This document shows positions 2,321 to 5,976 of a stretch of 5,976 nt of DNA, piece by piece (position 1 is the first letter of the stretch; each line of letters opens with the position of its first letter). The stretch covers positions 1 to 5,976 of the IMG/VR virus record IMGVR_UViG_2703718823_000007; one strand, 5' to 3'. A program made the translations under genes and the position numbers. The notes beneath the pieces were generated by a model. The model saw only the letters and a list, made by a program, of their open reading frames with translations. It was not told the DNA's origin and made no database searches. Origin of the DNA: a virus (Duplodnaviria > Heunggongvirae > Uroviricota > Caudoviricetes).

Positions 2321-2423
2321 ACAGCCTTCCCCTGAATAAATTAACCGCCACTTGCCATTCCGTACAGAAGTCGGATATCCTTCGCCCGAAAAGCATGAAA
2401 CACATTTCTGCCATGCTAAACAG

Positions 2424-2459
2424 AAACCCCGGTATCAGCAGATACCGGGGTTTTCTTTC
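2424..2459. terminator. Putative bidirectional intrinsic terminator: perfect 13-bp inverted repeat with 4-nt loop, flanked by A-tract and T-tract
   Basis: AAACCCCGGTATC (2424..2436), loop AGCA, GATACCGGGGTTT (2441..2453), followed by TTTTCTTTC on the plus strand. On the minus strand the same stem is followed by TTTCTGTTT. Confidence 0.5.
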
Positions 2460-2525
2460 ATGCCCACCGATAATCCTGTTGGTTAAAACCGGTAATGGCA
2501 TAAAAATTCTGAATATCTTCACATT

Positions 2526-2553
2526 TTCACACACTGACTGTGGCGCTTATAAT
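2526..2553 (+). promoter_or_regulatory. Putative sigma70-type promoter on the plus strand
   Basis: -35 TTCACA (2526..2531; 5/6 match to TTGACA), 16-nt spacer, -10 TATAAT (2548..2553; 6/6). Predicted start near 2560. Orientation is opposite to the phage late genes. Confidence 0.35.
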
Positions 2554-2559
2554 TTCGCT

Positions 2560-2657
2560 GCGTTAGTGTTTTTTTGCCCGAGTAACAAAAACAACTCCTT
2601 AACATTAATCTTCATTTGTCTGTCCCCGCAGCTCCGCGATCACTGCGGGATTTTTTT
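2560..2657 (+). ncRNA. Candidate small RNA of roughly 100 nt, hypothetical, bounded by the promoter-like element and the downstream hairpin plus T7
   Basis: Inferred only from promoter-like and terminator-like signals in the correct order and orientation on the plus strand. No plus-strand ORF with a ribosome-binding site lies between them. The body contains a CUCCUU anti-Shine-Dalgarno-like motif (2595..2600). Confidence 0.2.
2624..2657 (+). terminator. Putative plus-strand intrinsic terminator
   Basis: GC-rich stem CCCGCAG (2625..2631) / CTGCGGG (2643..2649) with an 11-nt loop, immediately followed by TTTTTTT (2651..2657). On the minus strand the hairpin is preceded, not followed, by the homopolymer, so it is plus-strand specific. 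It lies 6 nt from the I stop codon. Confidence 0.4.
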
Positions 2658-2662
2658 ATGTT

Positions 2663-3343
2663 TTATCCCTGTCGACCAATAACCACCACCTTTCCGTCTC
2701 CGCCTTCATCACGGGTGCTGATGTCCTGAGAGATACGTCGTGAACCAACCAGCATTTCACCGTAGGGCACCGGCATCGGGTTGCCCTGGGCAATCATGTT
2801 GTCCAGTGAGGAAAAATACGTGTTCTGTCTGCCGTTATCCGTTGCGCGGTAATCCGGTGTTTTTGCCTTCGGGGCCAGCATCTGGGCCACACCGCCCAGT
2901 ATCATGCTGGCACCCAGTGAAAACAGCATCGTGGTGGCAGAAAAACCACCGGCTGCCAGGGCTGAACCCCATAACGCCATTGATGCCCCGGCAGTGAAGA
3001 AAGAGCCCACGATGGCTGCCGCCCCCAGCACAATCTGCAGTCCACCCTTTCCGGCCCCGGCCAGTCGCGGCACAATATGGATGACCGTTCCCTCACCCAG
3101 CTGTTCGTGAAGACGGGCGTACACCGCCTCCGGTGCCGTGTCATAACCGGCAATACGTATCTGGTACCAGCCTTCGTTCATCTGAAGGCGAAAGCCCGGC
3201 ATCTGCATCGACAGGGCGCGAATGGCTTCCGCTGCCGTGTTCACATACAGGCTGAGGCGGCGGCCAAATCGTTGTAAATCCCCGTGAAGGCAGATGCGGA
3301 CCAGTGGCGGTGACGCCAGACAGAATGCGTTCGTCGTTGCCAT
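2663..3343 (-). CDS. I: Tail assembly protein I (ubiquitin-like beta-grasp N-terminal domain, Gly/Ala-rich hydrophobic C-terminal half), 226 aa
   Basis: ATG at 3343..3341, stop TAA at 2665..2663. The translation MATTNAFCLASPPLVRICLHGDLQRFGRRL...SLDNMIAQGN...VVVIGRQG matches recalled lambda gpI along its length. The 5' end overlaps the 3' end of K by 103 nt in another frame, as in lambda. Confidence 0.9.
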   Translation of the reverse strand: MATTNAFCLASPPLVRICLHGDLQRFGRRLSLYVNTAAEAIRALSMQMPGFRLQMNEGWYQIRIAGYDTAPEAVYARLHEQLGEGTVIHIVPRLAGAGKGGLQIVLGAAAIVGSFFTAGASMALWGSALAAGGFSATTMLFSLGASMILGGVAQMLAPKAKTPDYRATDNGRQNTYFSSLDNMIAQGNPMPVPYGEMLVGSRRISQDISTRDEGGDGKVVVIGRQG

Positions 3344-3984
3344 TTTTCGGAATAACTCTCCCGTTTACTCAGTTGTTCAGGAATATGGTGAAGCAGTTCA
3401 CCGTTGCCGCAGTAAATGGCGGCATGATTAGCCACCGATGCGCCGAAGCAGCACAGCAGGATATCGCCCGGCAGTGCAGAGGACAGGGGCACCCGGTAAA
3501 AGCCCGTTGCCTCCATATTGTCCAGGTAAAGGTTCTGACCGTTGCACCACCAGTCATCCTCACGGTGAAAATCCGGCATATCAATGCCTGCCAGATGGTA
3601 TGCATCCCGGAACAGCGTGTAACAGTCCGTCACCCCGTGCGCAAAGCGCCGTCCTGTCAGATGTGGCACACAGCGGAATTTGTGAATGTCACCCCGGCAG
3701 ACCAGCCACCAGGGCAGTGCGCTTTTTATCTGCAGCCGCCGGTCAGCCTCGCTCAGCCAGGGCAGCCCACCGGGATGACTGTGGACCAGTGCCACAATCT
3801 CCCCCGACATCTCTGCCCGCAGCCAGTCTTCCGGTGCGATACGAAAATACGCCTCAGGCTCTGCAGAGATATTCACGCACGGCTGGTACTGGTTGCCCTC
3901 CGGCGTGCTTATCACGAAGCCGCACGACTCCGCAGGCGCACACCGCCGGGCATGCGCCAGAATCGCTGATTCAGTCTGTGTCAT
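3241..3984 (-). CDS. K: Tail assembly protein K (JAB/MPN metallopeptidase-like domain plus NlpC/P60-like domain), 247 aa with the start chosen at 3984
   Basis: Translation MTQTESAILAHARRC...HSHPGGLPWLSEAD...GVTDCYTLFRDAYH...LLHHIPEQLSKRESY... matches recalled lambda gpK. The ORF-track entry 3241..4245 extends upstream into L from a non-ATG start; I place the start at ATG 3984..3982, 10 nt after the L stop. It has no obvious Shine-Dalgarno sequence, so the exact start is uncertain (an internal ATG at 3810..3808 is the alternative). Confidence 0.85.
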   Translation of the reverse strand: MTQTESAILAHARRCAPAESCGFVISTPEGNQYQPCVNISAEPEAYFRIAPEDWLRAEMSGEIVALVHSHPGGLPWLSEADRRLQIKSALPWWLVCRGDIHKFRCVPHLTGRRFAHGVTDCYTLFRDAYHLAGIDMPDFHREDDWWCNGQNLYLDNMEATGFYRVPLSSALPGDILLCCFGASVANHAAIYCGNGELLHHIPEQLSKRESYSEKWQRRTHSVWRHRHWSASAFTGIYNDLAAASACM

Positions 3985-3994
3985 AAACCGGGAT

Positions 3995-4693
3995 TTACTG
4001 CGAAAGTTTATTAATGGAAAGGAAACCGCCAAAATTGCCGACATTCCTGCGCAGTTCACACCCGCGCATGCACTTGCTGCATCTGTCCTTACGGATATCC
4101 GTGGTGGGTTTATCGAACTCATCCGCCACAGCCCCGCCCGTGTAACCACACTCATCAGAGCGGTAGGTCCACATACAGGTGTTCGCCAGCATGATGCGAC
4201 CGGGAAACAGCGCCCCGTCCGTCTCGGTCGGTGTGGCCAGCACAAACGAGGCCGTCATGGCCGTCAGCTCTGACATCTGCTCCACCACCCAGCGGTCACT
4301 CAGCTCCTGCTCCGGGTCCGCTTCCGGATTGCCCGCAACGAAATTCACCGCATCCAGAAAACGGGCATACACCCGGCGGCGGACCACCGTGGCCCCCACC
4401 AGACTCTGCAGGTCTTCCGCCATCCCGGTGACAAGGCCAAACAGATTGGACACCGTCAGCAACGGTCTGGCACTGCTGCCCTTTCCGTTCATCTCAAAGC
4501 CGCTGCCCTCAATCGGGTATGCCTCATACTTACGCCCCTGCCAGGTGACCGGCTCCCCTTTTTCATTCAGCTCATTACAGAAAAAATACCGCTCACCGCC
4601 CTGTACCGTCAGGTCGATTTCCCAGAGTACCACCCGCGGTGACTGCTCTGATTTAACCGACTCGTTCAGACTTTCTTCGTGAATATCCTGCAT
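3995..4693 (-). CDS. L: Minor tail protein L (tail tip complex), 232 aa
   Basis: ATG at 4693..4691 with AGGTGG Shine-Dalgarno-like sequence upstream, stop TAA at 3997..3995. Translation MQDIHEESLNESVKSEQSPRVVLWEIDLTVQGGERYFFCNE... with a Cys-rich C-terminus, consistent with lambda gpL. Confidence 0.92.
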   Translation of the reverse strand: MQDIHEESLNESVKSEQSPRVVLWEIDLTVQGGERYFFCNELNEKGEPVTWQGRKYEAYPIEGSGFEMNGKGSSARPLLTVSNLFGLVTGMAEDLQSLVGATVVRRRVYARFLDAVNFVAGNPEADPEQELSDRWVVEQMSELTAMTASFVLATPTETDGALFPGRIMLANTCMWTYRSDECGYTGGAVADEFDKPTTDIRKDRCSKCMRGCELRRNVGNFGGFLSINKLSQ

Positions 4694-5022
4694 CAGTTCA
4701 CCACCTGCTTAAACTCCGCGCTGAACTCAACGCGCAACATCCCGACCCGCGCAGACCACCCGGCACAGGTCACCTTTATCTGCCGGTATGCATAGGGTGG
4801 CTTCCACAAAAATGCCTTCCAGCCACCGTGCTCTGCCAGGAACGCTTCCAGATGCCGGGCCTCCTCCCGGGTCACGGAAAGCATCACCCGGTATGTTTTC
4901 AGGTCAGCATTCAGCCCTGCCGCCATACGCTGTGAGTACCCGTCACCAAAACGCACTTCACGCACCGATGGCTGCGAGTTCACCTCCATATCCGGTTTCA
5001 CTTTCCAGCGAAAGGTTTTCAT
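4693..5022 (-). CDS. M: Minor tail protein M, 109 aa
   Basis: ATG at 5022..5020 with GGGAG 7-8 nt upstream. Translation MKTFRWKVKPDMEVNSQPSVREVRFGDGYSQR...FLWKPPYAYRQIKVTCAGWSARVGMLRVEFSAEFKQVVN is near-identical in pattern to recalled lambda gpM. Its stop TGA overlaps the L start (TGATG). Confidence 0.92.
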   Translation of the reverse strand: MKTFRWKVKPDMEVNSQPSVREVRFGDGYSQRMAAGLNADLKTYRVMLSVTREEARHLEAFLAEHGGWKAFLWKPPYAYRQIKVTCAGWSARVGMLRVEFSAEFKQVVN

Positions 5023-5976
5023 CGCCCGCTCCCCGATAACAGACCGCCATCACGCAACTGCAGCCGGAGCTCATCCTGCGCACCTTTACGGGCCATCTCA
5101 TACACCGCTTTCATCAGCTGCGGCCCGGCCTGTCCGTTGATGCCGTCGTTCTGAATCACCACGTGATTGTTCTGATTAAAATTAATACCTTCCGCCCGCC
5201 GCATCTGCGCCGGACTTCCGGCAGCACCCACATACCCCCCTTCCGCATAGCCCCGCATCAGGCGGTACAGGTTCCCGACACCAATCCGGCTGGTTGCCTC
5301 CTTCGTGAAGACAAACTCCCCGCGGTGGACAATCCCCGCTGGCTCATATTTGCCACCGGTTCCCGTAAATCCCCCGGTCGCGAAATGGAAGTTCGCCGCC
5401 GCAGCCTGAATGGCCGTCCCCGTGGAAGCGGATGCGCCACCACCGAAAGCACCACCAATGGCGCTGCCGATACGCCCGACAATCCCCACCATCGCCTGCT
5501 TCAGAAAAATCTCTGTCAGCATGGAGAGCACGGAACGGGTGAAACCACGCCAGTTCTGTTCGCTGCCGGTCAGCATCGCTGCCAGATTCTGTGCAATACC
5601 GTCAAAGGTCTGCGTGGCCGCGCTTTTAACCTGCGAAAAACTGTCCGTCGCACTTTCCGCCCACTCGCCCCAGCCGGACTTCAGACCCGCCATCCAGCTT
5701 CCACGAAGCTGCTCCTCCGCAGACCAGGTGTTCTTCAGTGCAGATGTGGCCTTCGCCAGCGCATCCGGATTATCACCGTACACGTCACGAAGGCGCTGCT
5801 CTTCCGACTCCCGCTGCGCCTGACGGTCGGTGAGGCCGCGGGCTTTTGCGCTGATGGCGGCCTGCTTCGCGCTCTGCTGCTGTTCAAACCGCGCCGCCTG
5901 CTGTGCCAGCTCATTCAGCCGTTTCTGGTGTTCAACCTTGTCGCCCAGGTCAGCCAGCTGGCGTTTGTACTCCAGC
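5019..5976 (-). CDS. H: Tail tape measure protein H, C-terminal ~318 codons; partial, the 5' end lies beyond the right edge of the window
   Basis: The minus-strand frame is open from the window edge (LEYKRQLADLGDKVEHQKRLNELAQQ...) to stop TGA at 5021..5019. The C-terminus ...YEPAGIVHRGEFVFTKEATSRIGVGNLYRLMRGYAEGGYVG...NNHVVIQNDG...MARKGAQDE...RDGGLLSGSGR matches the recalled lambda gpH C-terminus. The track start at 5783 is an internal GTG, not the true start. Confidence 0.9.
   Translation of the reverse strand, partial: LEYKRQLADLGDKVEHQKRLNELAQQAARFEQQQSAKQAAISAKARGLTDRQAQRESEEQRLRDVYGDNPDALAKATSALKNTWSAEEQLRGSWMAGLKSGWGEWAESATDSFSQVKSAATQTFDGIAQNLAAMLTGSEQNWRGFTRSVLSMLTEIFLKQAMVGIVGRIGSAIGGAFGGGASASTGTAIQAAAANFHFATGGFTGTGGKYEPAGIVHRGEFVFTKEATSRIGVGNLYRLMRGYAEGGYVGAAGSPAQMRRAEGINFNQNNHVVIQNDGINGQAGPQLMKAVYEMARKGAQDELRLQLRDGGLLSGSGR

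Follow-up and report, generated by a model that had tools for sequence, protein, structure and literature searches.

An Antisense Small RNA Gene at the I-J Junction of a Lambdoid Prophage Tail Operon, Orthologous to the Hfq-Dependent RNA PasB of EPEC

Results

Organization of the I-J Spacer

The DNA examined, hereafter the window (5,976 nt, from the virus record IMGVR_UViG_2703718823_000007), carries on its minus strand part of the tail operon of a lambdoid prophage, with the tail assembly gene I and the 5' part of the host-specificity gene J separated by an intergenic spacer (Table 1). A preliminary description had estimated this spacer at about 340 bp and 44% G+C, in good accordance with the measured 342 bp and 43.3%, the flanks being at 58.8% and 58.9%. 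It had also rightly ascribed a short spacer to lambda, which is 60 bp in length (15445–15504). The reading of a moron-like insert holds, the segment being extra DNA with respect to the lambda junction, of lower G+C (43% vs. 59%) and provided with its own promoter and terminator. Comparison of I-J junctions also revealed homology of the segment with the loci of the small RNAs (sRNAs) PasB and EcOnc22-24 (see below). The I-J spacer of the Sakai prophage Sp12 is 99.1% identical to that of the window, and a tblastn search with the window I protein showed that I homologues adjoin the sRNA module at other loci. All the features previously described were retrieved, at coordinates either exact or displaced by one or two bases.

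One of these features, a perfect 13-bp hairpin (arms 2424–2436 and 2441–2453, 100% complementary, 4-nt loop), had been proposed to insulate the sRNA unit from J. The hairpin is present but the insulator role does not stand, as lambda has a late-strand hairpin and U-run just upstream of J, its 60-bp spacer holding AAACCGCC-TGCG-GGCGGTTTTGTC. At the hairpin position, CAGGCACC...GGTGCCTG is found in Sakai and EPEC. The 13-bp hairpin is an ancestral feature of the I-J junction, lying outside the sRNA unit.

Table 1. Position of the genes, spacer and sRNA gene elements in the window.
Feature	Position (nt)	Strand	Basis or remark
Gene J (host-specificity), 5' part	1–2320 (start codon 2320–2318)	minus	ORFs; homologous records annotate J
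I-J intergenic spacer	2321–2662 (342 bp)		ORF list; lambdoid prophage tail operon, operon on minus strand
Perfect 13-bp hairpin with U-rich run on both strands	2424–2462	minus	counterpart of the lambda late-strand hairpin
sRNA gene module (regulatory block, promoter, RNA body, terminator)	2497–2662	plus	orthologue of the EPEC PP6 pasB locus
CRP-like site TCTGA-N6-TCACA, candidate regulator-binding site	2508–2523	plus	conserved half-sites
-35 hexamer TTCACA	2526–2531	plus	specific to the PasB/window subtype
-10 hexamer TATAAT	2548–2553	plus	column kept family-wide
Predicted primary transcript, ≈98 nt	2560–2657	plus	start placed 7 nt after -10
Weak 5' stem-loop	2567–2593	plus	predicted fold; U-run 2567–2573 pairs with A-run 2587–2593
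PasB-equivalent span, 83 nt	2575–2657	plus	mapped from the PasB annotation by alignment, 81/83 identical
A-rich tract AACAAAAACAAC (A-R-N repeats), candidate Hfq distal-face contact	2584–2595	plus	read from sequence
Predicted single-stranded seed region CUCCUUAACAUUAAUCUUCAU	2595–2615	plus	unpaired in MFE and centroid folds
Intrinsic terminator	2625–2657	plus	7-bp stem CCCGCAG/CUGCGGG, 11-nt loop, A, U7
Tail assembly gene I	2663–3343	minus	ORF list; homologous records annotate I

Promoter, Upstream Block and Terminator

As anticipated, a near-consensus plus-strand promoter (TTCACA-N16-TATAAT, nt 2526–2553) is present, agreeing with the consensus at 11 of 12 positions. It is the sole match of at least 11/12 in the window, and 5 of 300 shuffled sequences yielded one. 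The hexamers pointed out in the preliminary description behave differently in the family alignment: the -10 is kept family-wide (as TATAAT, GATAAT, AATAAT, TATCAT or CATAAT), whereas the near-consensus -35 TTCACA is subtype-specific, being seen only in variants m00–m06 and in the EPEC prophage PP6.

Upstream of the promoter lies the block TCTGA-N6-TCACA, whose half-sites are invariant in 37 of 37 variants, while six versions of the N6 occur and the -35 region shows little conservation. The flanks of the block are also conserved (an A/T-rich stretch at nt 2501–2507 and TTT at nt 2524–2526), and the site is retained by the divergent copies retrieved with BLAST. The motif matches once in the window, against 0.23 matches expected; 41 of 200 shuffles also yield one, and the single match is not significant by itself. 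Its centre falls at -44.5 from the predicted start, to be compared with the canonical -41.5 of class II sites. We infer that the block may make the sRNA promoter responsive to cAMP-CRP.

The expected plus-strand terminator, a hairpin followed by T7, was likewise found, with a perfect 7-bp stem (2625–2631/2643–2649) and a T-run (2651–2657) that leaves five bases to the I stop codon. Stem and U-tail are invariant across the family and the loop is variable; a GC-rich 7-bp stem followed by U7 is in accordance with the U-tail of at least six residues of Hfq-dependent sRNAs.

That no plausible plus-strand ORF lies between promoter and terminator, as previously stated, was borne out by the ORF list. 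On the late strand, an ATG with GGGGA before it opens a small ORF (MKINVKELF..., start 2615, stop 2547–2549), and the records ASU11 and PhiR12_1 annotate "hypothetical protein" CDSs over the sRNA region, so that the locus could be read as a small protein gene with an incidental plus-strand promoter and terminator. This reading is extremely improbable, and the late-strand ORF was rejected for want of a conserved frame: peptide length varies between 11 and 41 aa, copies that are nearly identical differ by indels of one base that alter the entire C-terminus, ACG replaces ATG in four variants, and only MKIN is common to the subtypes. Conservation tracks the promoter, seed and terminator blocks and not the codons, and plus-strand RNA was detected experimentally for PasB and EcOnc22. 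A type I toxin-antitoxin arrangement was also discarded, since neither frame, length nor start codon of the late-strand ORF is conserved.

The RNA Body

A plus-strand RNA of about 100 nt had been predicted, starting near nt 2560. The annotation of its orthologue PasB maps to nt 2575–2657 of the window, in exact agreement with the prediction at the 3' end; the annotated 5' end, instead, is at 2575 and not at about 2560. This displacement, 15 nt downstream of the start expected from TATAAT, may reflect either processing of the RNA or low read coverage. The 5' block of the longer transcript (GCGUUAG, nt 2560–2566) is conserved in the family, with a majority fraction of 0.94. It is followed by a weak putative 5' stem, of a U-run against an A-run with a register that shifts between copies; variant m10 carries UUCAU/AUGAA where this stem lies, and the RNAalifold consensus lacks it. 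The A-run of the A-rich tract is conserved at 0.86. A-R-N motifs have been described at Hfq sites (PMC4104026), and the tract may contact Hfq on its distal face.

A conserved single-stranded seed is predicted at nt 2595–2615. Its ends are conserved (CUCC 0.93; UUAAUCUUCAU 0.96) and its middle is variable (0.68), and the conservation of the ends also holds in copies not chosen by these motifs. The CUCCUU that had been singled out as an anti-Shine-Dalgarno-like motif is present at nt 2595–2600 and conserved across two body classes, which favors it as a candidate seed; CUCCUUAA is common to the seed region and to the class B bodies. Covariation had been suggested as a check on the hairpins. The terminator stem is indeed conserved but, being invariant in class A, it makes the RNAalifold analysis uninformative; in class B, only one-sided, pair-preserving changes were observed, in 4 sequences.

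Identity with PasB of EPEC

The module of the window (nt 2497–2662) is identical at 162 of 166 positions to nt 1466256–1466421 of NC_011601, within the I-J spacer (1466256–1466495) of prophage PP6 of EPEC E2348/69. PasB is annotated there on the minus strand (1466343 to 1466261, 83 nt) and was probed with AATCCCGCAGTGATCGCGGAGCT (Table S6, PMC8550237); this Northern probe matches exactly the minus strand of the window at nt 2630–2652. PasB and the window share promoter hexamers and their spacing, the terminator and the antisense placement, with five bases left before the I stop. The two substitutions between them, at nt 2601 (A in the window, C in PasB) and nt 2607 (A in the window, G in PasB), both fall within the putative seed. 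The spacers differ in the J-proximal part, of 176 bp in the window and made up in PP6 of ≈75 bp of Sakai-type sequence.

In the enteropathogenic E. coli (EPEC) strain O127:H6 E2348/69, PasB (pathogenicity-associated small RNA B) is backed by Northern blot, RNA-seq and RIL-seq (Pearl Mizrahi et al. 2021, Sci Adv, PMC8550237). Its log2 fold change in the hfq mutant was -6.79 and -2.39 in two conditions, and Northern blots corroborated its size and Hfq-dependent stability, with higher expression in the non-activating condition (PMC8550237). The expression pattern of PasB is reciprocal to that of Spf. An sRNA gene in the I-J spacer is thus already known, having been found experimentally as PasB, and the independently transcribed regulatory sRNA proposed for the window is supported by this Northern-verified, Hfq-dependent orthologue. 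The host strain of PasB differs from that of the window, whose RNA is predicted here from the sequence.

Thirty-seven RIL-seq interactions are reported for PasB, with bfpB (62), ler (54), perB (36), bfpI (33), ftsZ (22, odds ratio 43.6) and galE (21) among the partners listed, and PasB is always the second RNA of the chimeras listed (PMC8550237). In the non-activating condition, PasB accounts for 1820 chimeric fragments. These data bear on the possibility that the RNA is a sponge for a core-genome sRNA, as AgvB for GcvB and AsxR for FnrS, with no direct regulation of mRNAs. Validated sponges are known among EHEC prophage sRNAs (PMC4104026), the body, with conserved parts that enclose a variable middle segment, is reminiscent of AgvB and AsxR with their variable 5' and constant 3' parts, and one of the RIL-seq partners listed is a non-coding region beside pasA. 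The RIL-seq and CLASH partners listed are, however, overwhelmingly mRNAs, no core sRNA is found among those in the part of the tables covered, the non-activating RIL-seq sheet excluded, and the second place of PasB in the listed chimeras is typical of regulators. We regard a sponge function as very unlikely.

Relationship to EcOnc22, EcOnc23 and EcOnc24 of EHEC Sakai

EcOnc22, EcOnc23 and EcOnc24 of EHEC O157:H7 Sakai were identified as Hfq-CRAC peaks, with a Northern band of ≈85 nt destabilised without hfq (Tree et al. 2014, Mol Cell, PMC4104026). Their peaks belong to prophages Sp15, Sp14 and Sp11, respectively, in each case on the antisense strand of the I-J spacer, and the window module is ≈75% identical to the Sp11, Sp14 and Sp15 copies. 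The same I-J geometry is thus found in these prophages and in EPEC PP6. Common to the window and to the EcOnc22/23/24 loci are the antisense position in the spacer, TCTGA-N6-TCACA, a -10, the GCGUUA 5' end, the U-run and A-run, CUCC...GUUAAUCUUCAU and the CCCGCAG/CUGCGGG terminator with U7. Unlike the window, the Sakai loci are without a good -35, have AATAAT in place of TATAAT, encode a body 8–11 nt shorter, and carry CCAUAACGUU in the seed middle, where the window has CCUUAACAUU.

The Northern probe for EcOnc22/23/24, which matches exactly at nt 1375–1397 of locus L004, has no match to the window within 3 mismatches. Together with the exact match of the PasB probe, this assigns the window to the PasB subtype and not to the EcOnc22 subtype. 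Membership of the PasB/EcOnc22-24 family follows from homology, from the antisense I-J position with a 3' end next to the I stop, and from the PasB probe. For the Sp12 copy, 99% identical to the window, no EcOnc RNA is listed in Table S2 (PMC4104026).

RNase E-CLASH reads contain GCCTGAAAAATAACTCCATAACGTTAATCTTCA, which sets the coordinate offset at +135 and locates the peak on the RNA body. The CLASH hybrids of EcOnc22/23 pair via CCAUAACGUU, equivalent to the window seed, and those with yjbJ count 1–2 reads only. The relationship between PasB and EcOnc22 is stated neither in the note column of Table S6 (PMC8550237) nor in PMC4104026, and the targets of EcOnc22/23/24 were listed as unknown in a 2021 review (PMC7873438).

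Distribution of the Module and Its Fixed Position

Of 5426 complete E. coli genomes, 1814 carry the module, with 5545 occurrences altogether. A search of the spacer in Rfam, recommended in the preliminary description, came to nothing: no family of Rfam 15 matched even at permissive thresholds (E ≤ 1). The PGAP annotation lists nothing at the sRNA locus, and a literal search of paper full texts for the sRNA sequence gave no match. When species-representative genomes were searched with AACTCCNTAACNNTAATCTTCAT, three matches were obtained in unrelated MAGs, with about one expected by chance, none of which matches the module by BLAST.

Every family member found sits between I and J in antisense orientation, and this includes the divergent copies as well as the tandem arrays, which reach four units. 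Since the RNA is fully complementary to the I-J junction of the late mRNA, it would pair with that mRNA in the lytic cycle or whenever the late operon is leaky, and it might therefore act mainly in cis, triggering cleavage or transcription interference and tuning J, the tail-tip and host-range gene. In favor of such an action, besides the fixed position, the most conserved block of the body is the complement of late-strand AUGAAGAUUAA, before which a Shine-Dalgarno-like GGGA is found. Lambda OOP and P22 Sar are precedents of antisense RNAs acting in cis on the overlapping mRNA, and are not known to depend on Hfq. Like the window element they are short, antisense to a phage operon and ended by an intrinsic terminator; they differ from the PasB family, which has Hfq-bound trans partners. 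The Hfq dependence and the Hfq-bound chimeras listed with unlinked mRNAs (ler, perB, bfp, ftsZ, galE) speak against a mainly cis-acting RNA, as do the absence of I or J mRNA among the RIL-seq partners listed, the expression in uninduced lysogens, in which the late operon is silent, and the lack of conservation of the late-strand ORF under the RNA. We consider this mode quite unlikely as the main one, and it is compatible with a role in trans.

Discussion

The anatomy of the module, its homology, its fixed genomic position and its conservation pattern were established here for the window. On this basis, we are confident in proposing that nt 2497–2662 of the window are a gene for a Hfq-dependent sRNA, orthologue of PasB and paralogue of EcOnc22/23/24, carried as an antisense moron between I and J, with the mode of action outlined below. 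Hfq dependence and expression as an RNA of ≈83–85 nt have been published for PasB and EcOnc22; for the RNA of the window they are predicted. The new elements are modest: the family link between PasB and EcOnc22, the conserved CRP-like site, the second body class and the tandem arrays.

In a lysogen, with the late operon silent, host RNA polymerase would start at the sRNA's own sigma70 promoter and stop at the intrinsic terminator, giving a product of 83–98 nt. The terminator hairpin, the U7 tail and the A-rich tract would bind Hfq, by which the RNA would be stabilised, and the unstructured CUCCUU...UUAAUCUUCAU region would be free for trans pairing with mRNAs, likely on or close to their ribosome-binding sites. 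The identity of the seed nucleotides, and repression by occlusion of the ribosome-binding site as the outcome, are what we infer. Duplexes predicted window by window with the fragments of the RIL-seq partners did not rise above shuffled controls (z from -1.7 to +1.5), and whole-molecule RNAduplex runs against yjbJ were discarded as meaningless global duplexes. The literature on PasB and EcOnc22 reports chimeras only, with no target validated by reporter or compensatory mutation.

Prophage-encoded sRNAs offer several terms of comparison. DicF, encoded by the Qin/Kim prophage, is Hfq-dependent, is processed from a longer transcript and targets the ribosome-binding region of ftsZ. PasB is likewise prophage-encoded and Hfq-dependent and is found in chimeras with an ftsZ fragment that includes the start; it has, however, no known sequence similarity with DicF, another locus and another biogenesis, and the PasB-ftsZ duplex test was not significant. 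AgvB, AsxR, StxS and HnrS (EcOnc10-12) are, as the window element, short Hfq-binding RNAs with an intrinsic terminator, encoded by lambdoid prophage morons; they are multi-copy by way of several prophages and act on host regulators. They differ in position, some following P_R'/stx, others close to the terminase genes and none at I-J, and have no sequence similarity to the window element. AgvB and AsxR work as sponges and HnrS as a repressor of hha, whereas for PasB and EcOnc22 the partners are known as chimeras only. An AgvB-like anti-GcvB RNA was discarded as the identity of the element, AgvB and AsxR lying downstream of P_R' and having no sequence in common with it. The same holds for HnrS (PMC13502914), which corresponds to EcOnc10/11/12 at another locus near the terminase genes, and for PasA, PasC, PasD1 and PasD2, whose sequences are unrelated and lie at other loci. 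A superficially similar layout, GUUAAUC plus a terminator, was noticed in the RIL-seq candidate E2348C_1409.E2348C_1408.IGR.

A wider conjecture, which we put forward as unlikely, is that the I-J junction is a dedicated site for sRNA cassettes. A constant promoter under a regulator (possibly cAMP-CRP) and a constant Hfq frame would there enclose an exchangeable seed, recombination among prophages residing in one host would shuffle the units and pile up to four of them in arrays, and a second role in cis on the late transcript, owed to the fixed antisense position, would couple the nutritional state of the host to the expression of J.

As to the trans-acting sRNA that we propose, reading of the raw sequence recovered a real sRNA gene missing from both the PGAP annotation and Rfam. 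Its practical value lies in curation: about one in three complete E. coli genomes carries this sRNA, frequently more than once, and some phage records mis-annotate its locus as a hypothetical protein. The literatures on PasB in EPEC and on EcOnc22-24 in EHEC had not yet been linked. Linking them, together with the definition of the module, its conserved regulator site and its variable seed, provides the basis for an Rfam family and for targeted experiments on an sRNA whose RIL-seq partners in EPEC include the virulence regulators ler and perB.

Organisation of the window and of the I-J spacer

The window corresponds to a lambdoid prophage tail module displayed opposite to the direction of its genes, and many E. 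coli chromosomes are identical or near-identical to it. The AT-richer insert between I and J noticed in the preliminary description was confirmed, the spacer being 342 bases long with a G+C content of 43.3%, versus 58.8% and 58.9% in the flanks, while the lambda spacer measures only 60 bp. Comparison with Rfam 15 gave no match to the spacer, even at E<=1, and RefSeq annotation of the near-identical chromosomes has no feature under it.

The near-consensus plus-strand promoter, the hairpin with T7 terminator and the CUCCUU motif, all previously read from the sequence alone, were found in place. The promoter match is unique in the window, with one of that quality obtained in 5 of 300 shuffles, and five bases separate the end of the T-run from the I stop codon.

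Features of the window and of related loci (window coordinates unless an L number, denoting a fetched locus, is given)
Feature	Position	Strand	Basis or remark
H (end only)	start of the gene series, ahead of M	minus	ORFs
M	4693-5022	minus	ORFs
L	3995-4693	minus	ORFs
K	about 3241-3984	minus	ORFs
I	2663-3343	minus	ORFs
J, first 2320 bases	up to 2320	minus	ORFs
13-bp hairpin, perfect arms	2424-2436 and 2441-2453 (feature to 2462)	both strands U-rich	fold
CRP-like site TCTGA-N6-TCACA, A/T-rich flanks	2501-2526, core 2508-2523	upstream of sRNA promoter	conservation
Promoter TTCACA-N16-TATAAT	2526-2553	plus	11/12 consensus positions
CUCCUU	2595-2600	plus	in RNA body
Terminator stem, perfect 7 bp	2625-2631/2643-2649	plus	followed by A and seven T's, end 2657
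Tandem arrays	L085 10110-11025; also L033, L040, L081, L086, L120	antisense	module matches
Class B unit	L085 ~10560-10735; also L020, L033, L040, L081, L120	minus	shared promoter block and CUCCUUAAGG

The window element and the PasB and EcOnc22-24 sRNAs

In prophage PP6 of EPEC E2348/69, where gene I extends to 1466255 and J begins at 1466496, the sRNA PasB has been described at 1466343->1466261, on the strand opposite to I/J, with a length of 83 nt and AATCCCGCAGTGATCGCGGAGCT as Northern probe (Table S6, Pearl Mizrahi et al. 2021, PMC8550237). Judged by its sequence, the window element is the PasB gene in another strain, because the probe matches window 2630-2652 exactly, the PP6 module and window 2497-2662 are identical at 162/166 positions with -35, spacer and -10 in common, and PasB aligns to window 2575-2657 with 81/83 identity. 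The earlier prediction of an independent sRNA, with its 3' end at 2657, is borne out. PasB was confirmed by Northern blot, is Hfq-dependent (log2 fold change -6.79 and -2.39 in the hfq mutant), has 37 interactions, among the better-connected sRNAs, and reaches a higher level in the non-activating condition (PMC8550237).

Orphan Hfq-CRAC peaks of EHEC Sakai were catalogued by Tree et al. 2014, including EcOnc22 (prophage Sp15), seen as an ~85-nt band on Northern blots and less stable in the hfq mutant, and EcOnc23 (Sp14) and EcOnc24 (Sp11), given as its homologues (PMC4104026). We found all three peaks inside I-J spacers, antisense to the tail genes, and their common Northern probe has a perfect match in Sp15, located after the -10 and ahead of the terminator of the homologous module. 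RNase E-CLASH reads assigned to EcOnc22/23/24 contain GCCTGAAAAATAACTCCATAACGTTAATCTTCA and thereby reveal that the coordinates of Tree et al. differ by +135 from those of NC_002695.2, in agreement with the EcOnc42 landmark; with this offset the EcOnc Hfq peak comes to lie on the RNA body. No EHEC homologue of PasB is noted in Table S6 of the EPEC paper (PMC8550237), and the link between the two sets of names is added here. The spacer of another Sakai prophage, Sp12 (L132 13393-13733; NC_002695.2 2217392-2217732), is 99.1% identical to that of the window, has A replaced by G at one seed position (equivalent to window 2607), and has no entry among the published EcOnc Hfq peaks (PMC4104026), so that direct evidence for the PasB/window subtype comes from EPEC only. 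The first observation is confirmed and its sRNA interpretation supported; the sRNA at I-J already has a published name, PasB, and EcOnc22-24 are its paralogues.

Placement of the TATAAT predicts the start near 2560 that had been proposed, but the PasB annotation begins at the equivalent of 2575 and the CLASH fragments at that of 2576. These 5' ends, of the PasB annotation and of the EcOnc22-24 fragments, coincide at the G/C right after the U-run, 15 nt downstream of the predicted start. Low read coverage or processing at the U-run may be the reason, and RNase E might be the enzyme that cuts at 2575/2576.

The upstream hairpin and the late-strand ORF

The 13-bp hairpin is indeed present, but its proposed role as insulator of the sRNA unit did not stand, since lambda, Sakai and EPEC have a counterpart. 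On its late strand the 60-bp lambda spacer has, directly ahead of J, a hairpin and then a U-run (L133 about 866-890), and a late-strand hairpin of other sequence lies at the same place in the Sakai Sp11/14/15 and EPEC PP6 spacers. By this comparison the window hairpin, to which U-rich runs on both sides give a bidirectional look, is the counterpart of an ancestral, terminator-like I-J junction feature within the Q-antiterminated late operon. Between this hairpin and the I stop codon lies the inserted sRNA module.

A late-strand ATG occurs at 2615, preceded by GGGGA, and a 'hypothetical protein' is annotated over the sRNA gene in ASU11 (gp9c, L002 1481-1681) and PhiR12_1 (XSB41643.1, L003 1523-1621). 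A protein gene at window 2547-2615 (minus) was rejected because conservation is at the nucleotide level, with frame, length and start not conserved: depending on the variant, the encoded peptide has 11 to 41 aa, indels of one base in otherwise near-identical copies alter all residues after 15, four variants have ACG in place of ATG, and MKIN is the sole part common to the subtypes. On this pattern, the annotations are probably mis-calls.

Other inserts were observed in the tail operon. That of Sakai Sp6, between L and K (L131 35554-37209), encodes a regulator and an antirepressor, and the published EcOnc54 peak, with the +135 offset, falls between these genes; PhiR12_1 too has an antirepressor upstream of K. 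Several moron sites seem to be tolerated by the operon.

Distribution and variation of the module

Only the I-proximal half of the spacer (about 2497-2662) is widely shared, the J-proximal half (2321-2496) being limited to one subtype. Of 5426 complete E. coli genomes, 1814 carry the module, at 5545 places altogether and in as many as 11 copies within one genome; numerous Stx1 and Stx2 phages have it too, at about 75% identity. One viral contig shows a further, incomplete match to the seed and terminator stretch (L055 1651-1699), ~2.6 kb upstream of gene I and outside the I-J junction.

Variation was followed across 37 module variants, all distinct and taken from viral contigs, together with five divergent copies on chromosomes that were found by BLAST alone. 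The -10 column, the 5' GCGUUA, U-run, A-run, CUCC, GUUAAUCUUCAU and the terminator stem with its U-tail are conserved, while variation is seen in the -35 region, in the stretch that separates CUCC from GUUAAUC and in the terminator loop; a good -35 is confined to the PasB/window subtype. As the viral loci were fetched by a pattern that included TAATCTTCAT...CCGCAGC, conservation of those two blocks is partly forced in the viral set; the BLAST-derived copies carry the same conserved blocks, including those in the pattern.

The A/T-rich TCTGA-N6-TCACA block keeps its half-sites in 37/37 variants, with N6 in six forms. It resembles a CRP site of which one half (TCACATTT) is perfect, has its centre at -44.5 from the predicted start, and alone is not statistically unusual. 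In EPEC, PasB and the CRP-repressed Spf show reciprocal expression (PMC8550237). We regard the block as a candidate regulator site, as a lead only.

In some contigs three or four modules, every one of them antisense, stand in tandem, and the I-J spacer reaches as much as 916 bp. A piece similar to the 3' end of gene I comes after each unit, which suggests unequal recombination between prophages. Class B units, a second body type, keep the promoter block and CUCCUUAAGG but have another body and another terminator, which is longer (CUCCCGU...ACGGGAG) and in which copies differ by one-sided, pair-preserving changes only. Besides the link between the PasB and EcOnc names, the small additions made here are the constant placement of the family at I-J, its arrays and second body class, the conserved regulator-like site and the mis-annotated ORFs.

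Proposed mode of action

An Hfq-dependent trans-acting sRNA of classical type is the best-supported reading. In the lysogen, it would be transcribed from its own promoter and ended by the intrinsic terminator, whose U-tail would bind Hfq; the RNA would carry an A-rich tract and, in the predicted fold, an unstructured C/U-rich seed. Evidence for this seed is indirect: the stretch is kept across the family and common to both body classes, and the equivalent CCAUAACGUU of the EcOnc paralogues is used in the few CLASH hybrids with yjbJ, which are supported by 1-2 reads and involve a site within the yjbJ coding sequence. The RNA may in addition act in cis on the late transcript, as the invariant antisense position would allow; existing data are explained without such a role.

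As for partners of the trans-acting sRNA, EcOnc22/23/24 targets are given as "unknown" in a 2021 review (PMC7873438). In the portion of the EPEC data covered here, Hfq-bound PasB chimeras of the activating condition involve bfpB, ler, perB, bfpI, ftsZ, galE and rplX, with PasB as second RNA in every one, and the ftsZ fragment spans the ftsZ start codon (PMC8550237). Complements of 7-10 nt, as candidate pairing sites, are present in several partners (ler UGUGAAGGA, perB GAAGGAG, bfpI AAAUGAAGAU); windowed duplex energies against the RIL-seq partners were no better than those of shuffled controls (z -1.7 to +1.5). Both substitutions between window and PasB, one of them found in Sakai Sp12, fall in the putative seed region, and for this reason target sets may differ between strains.
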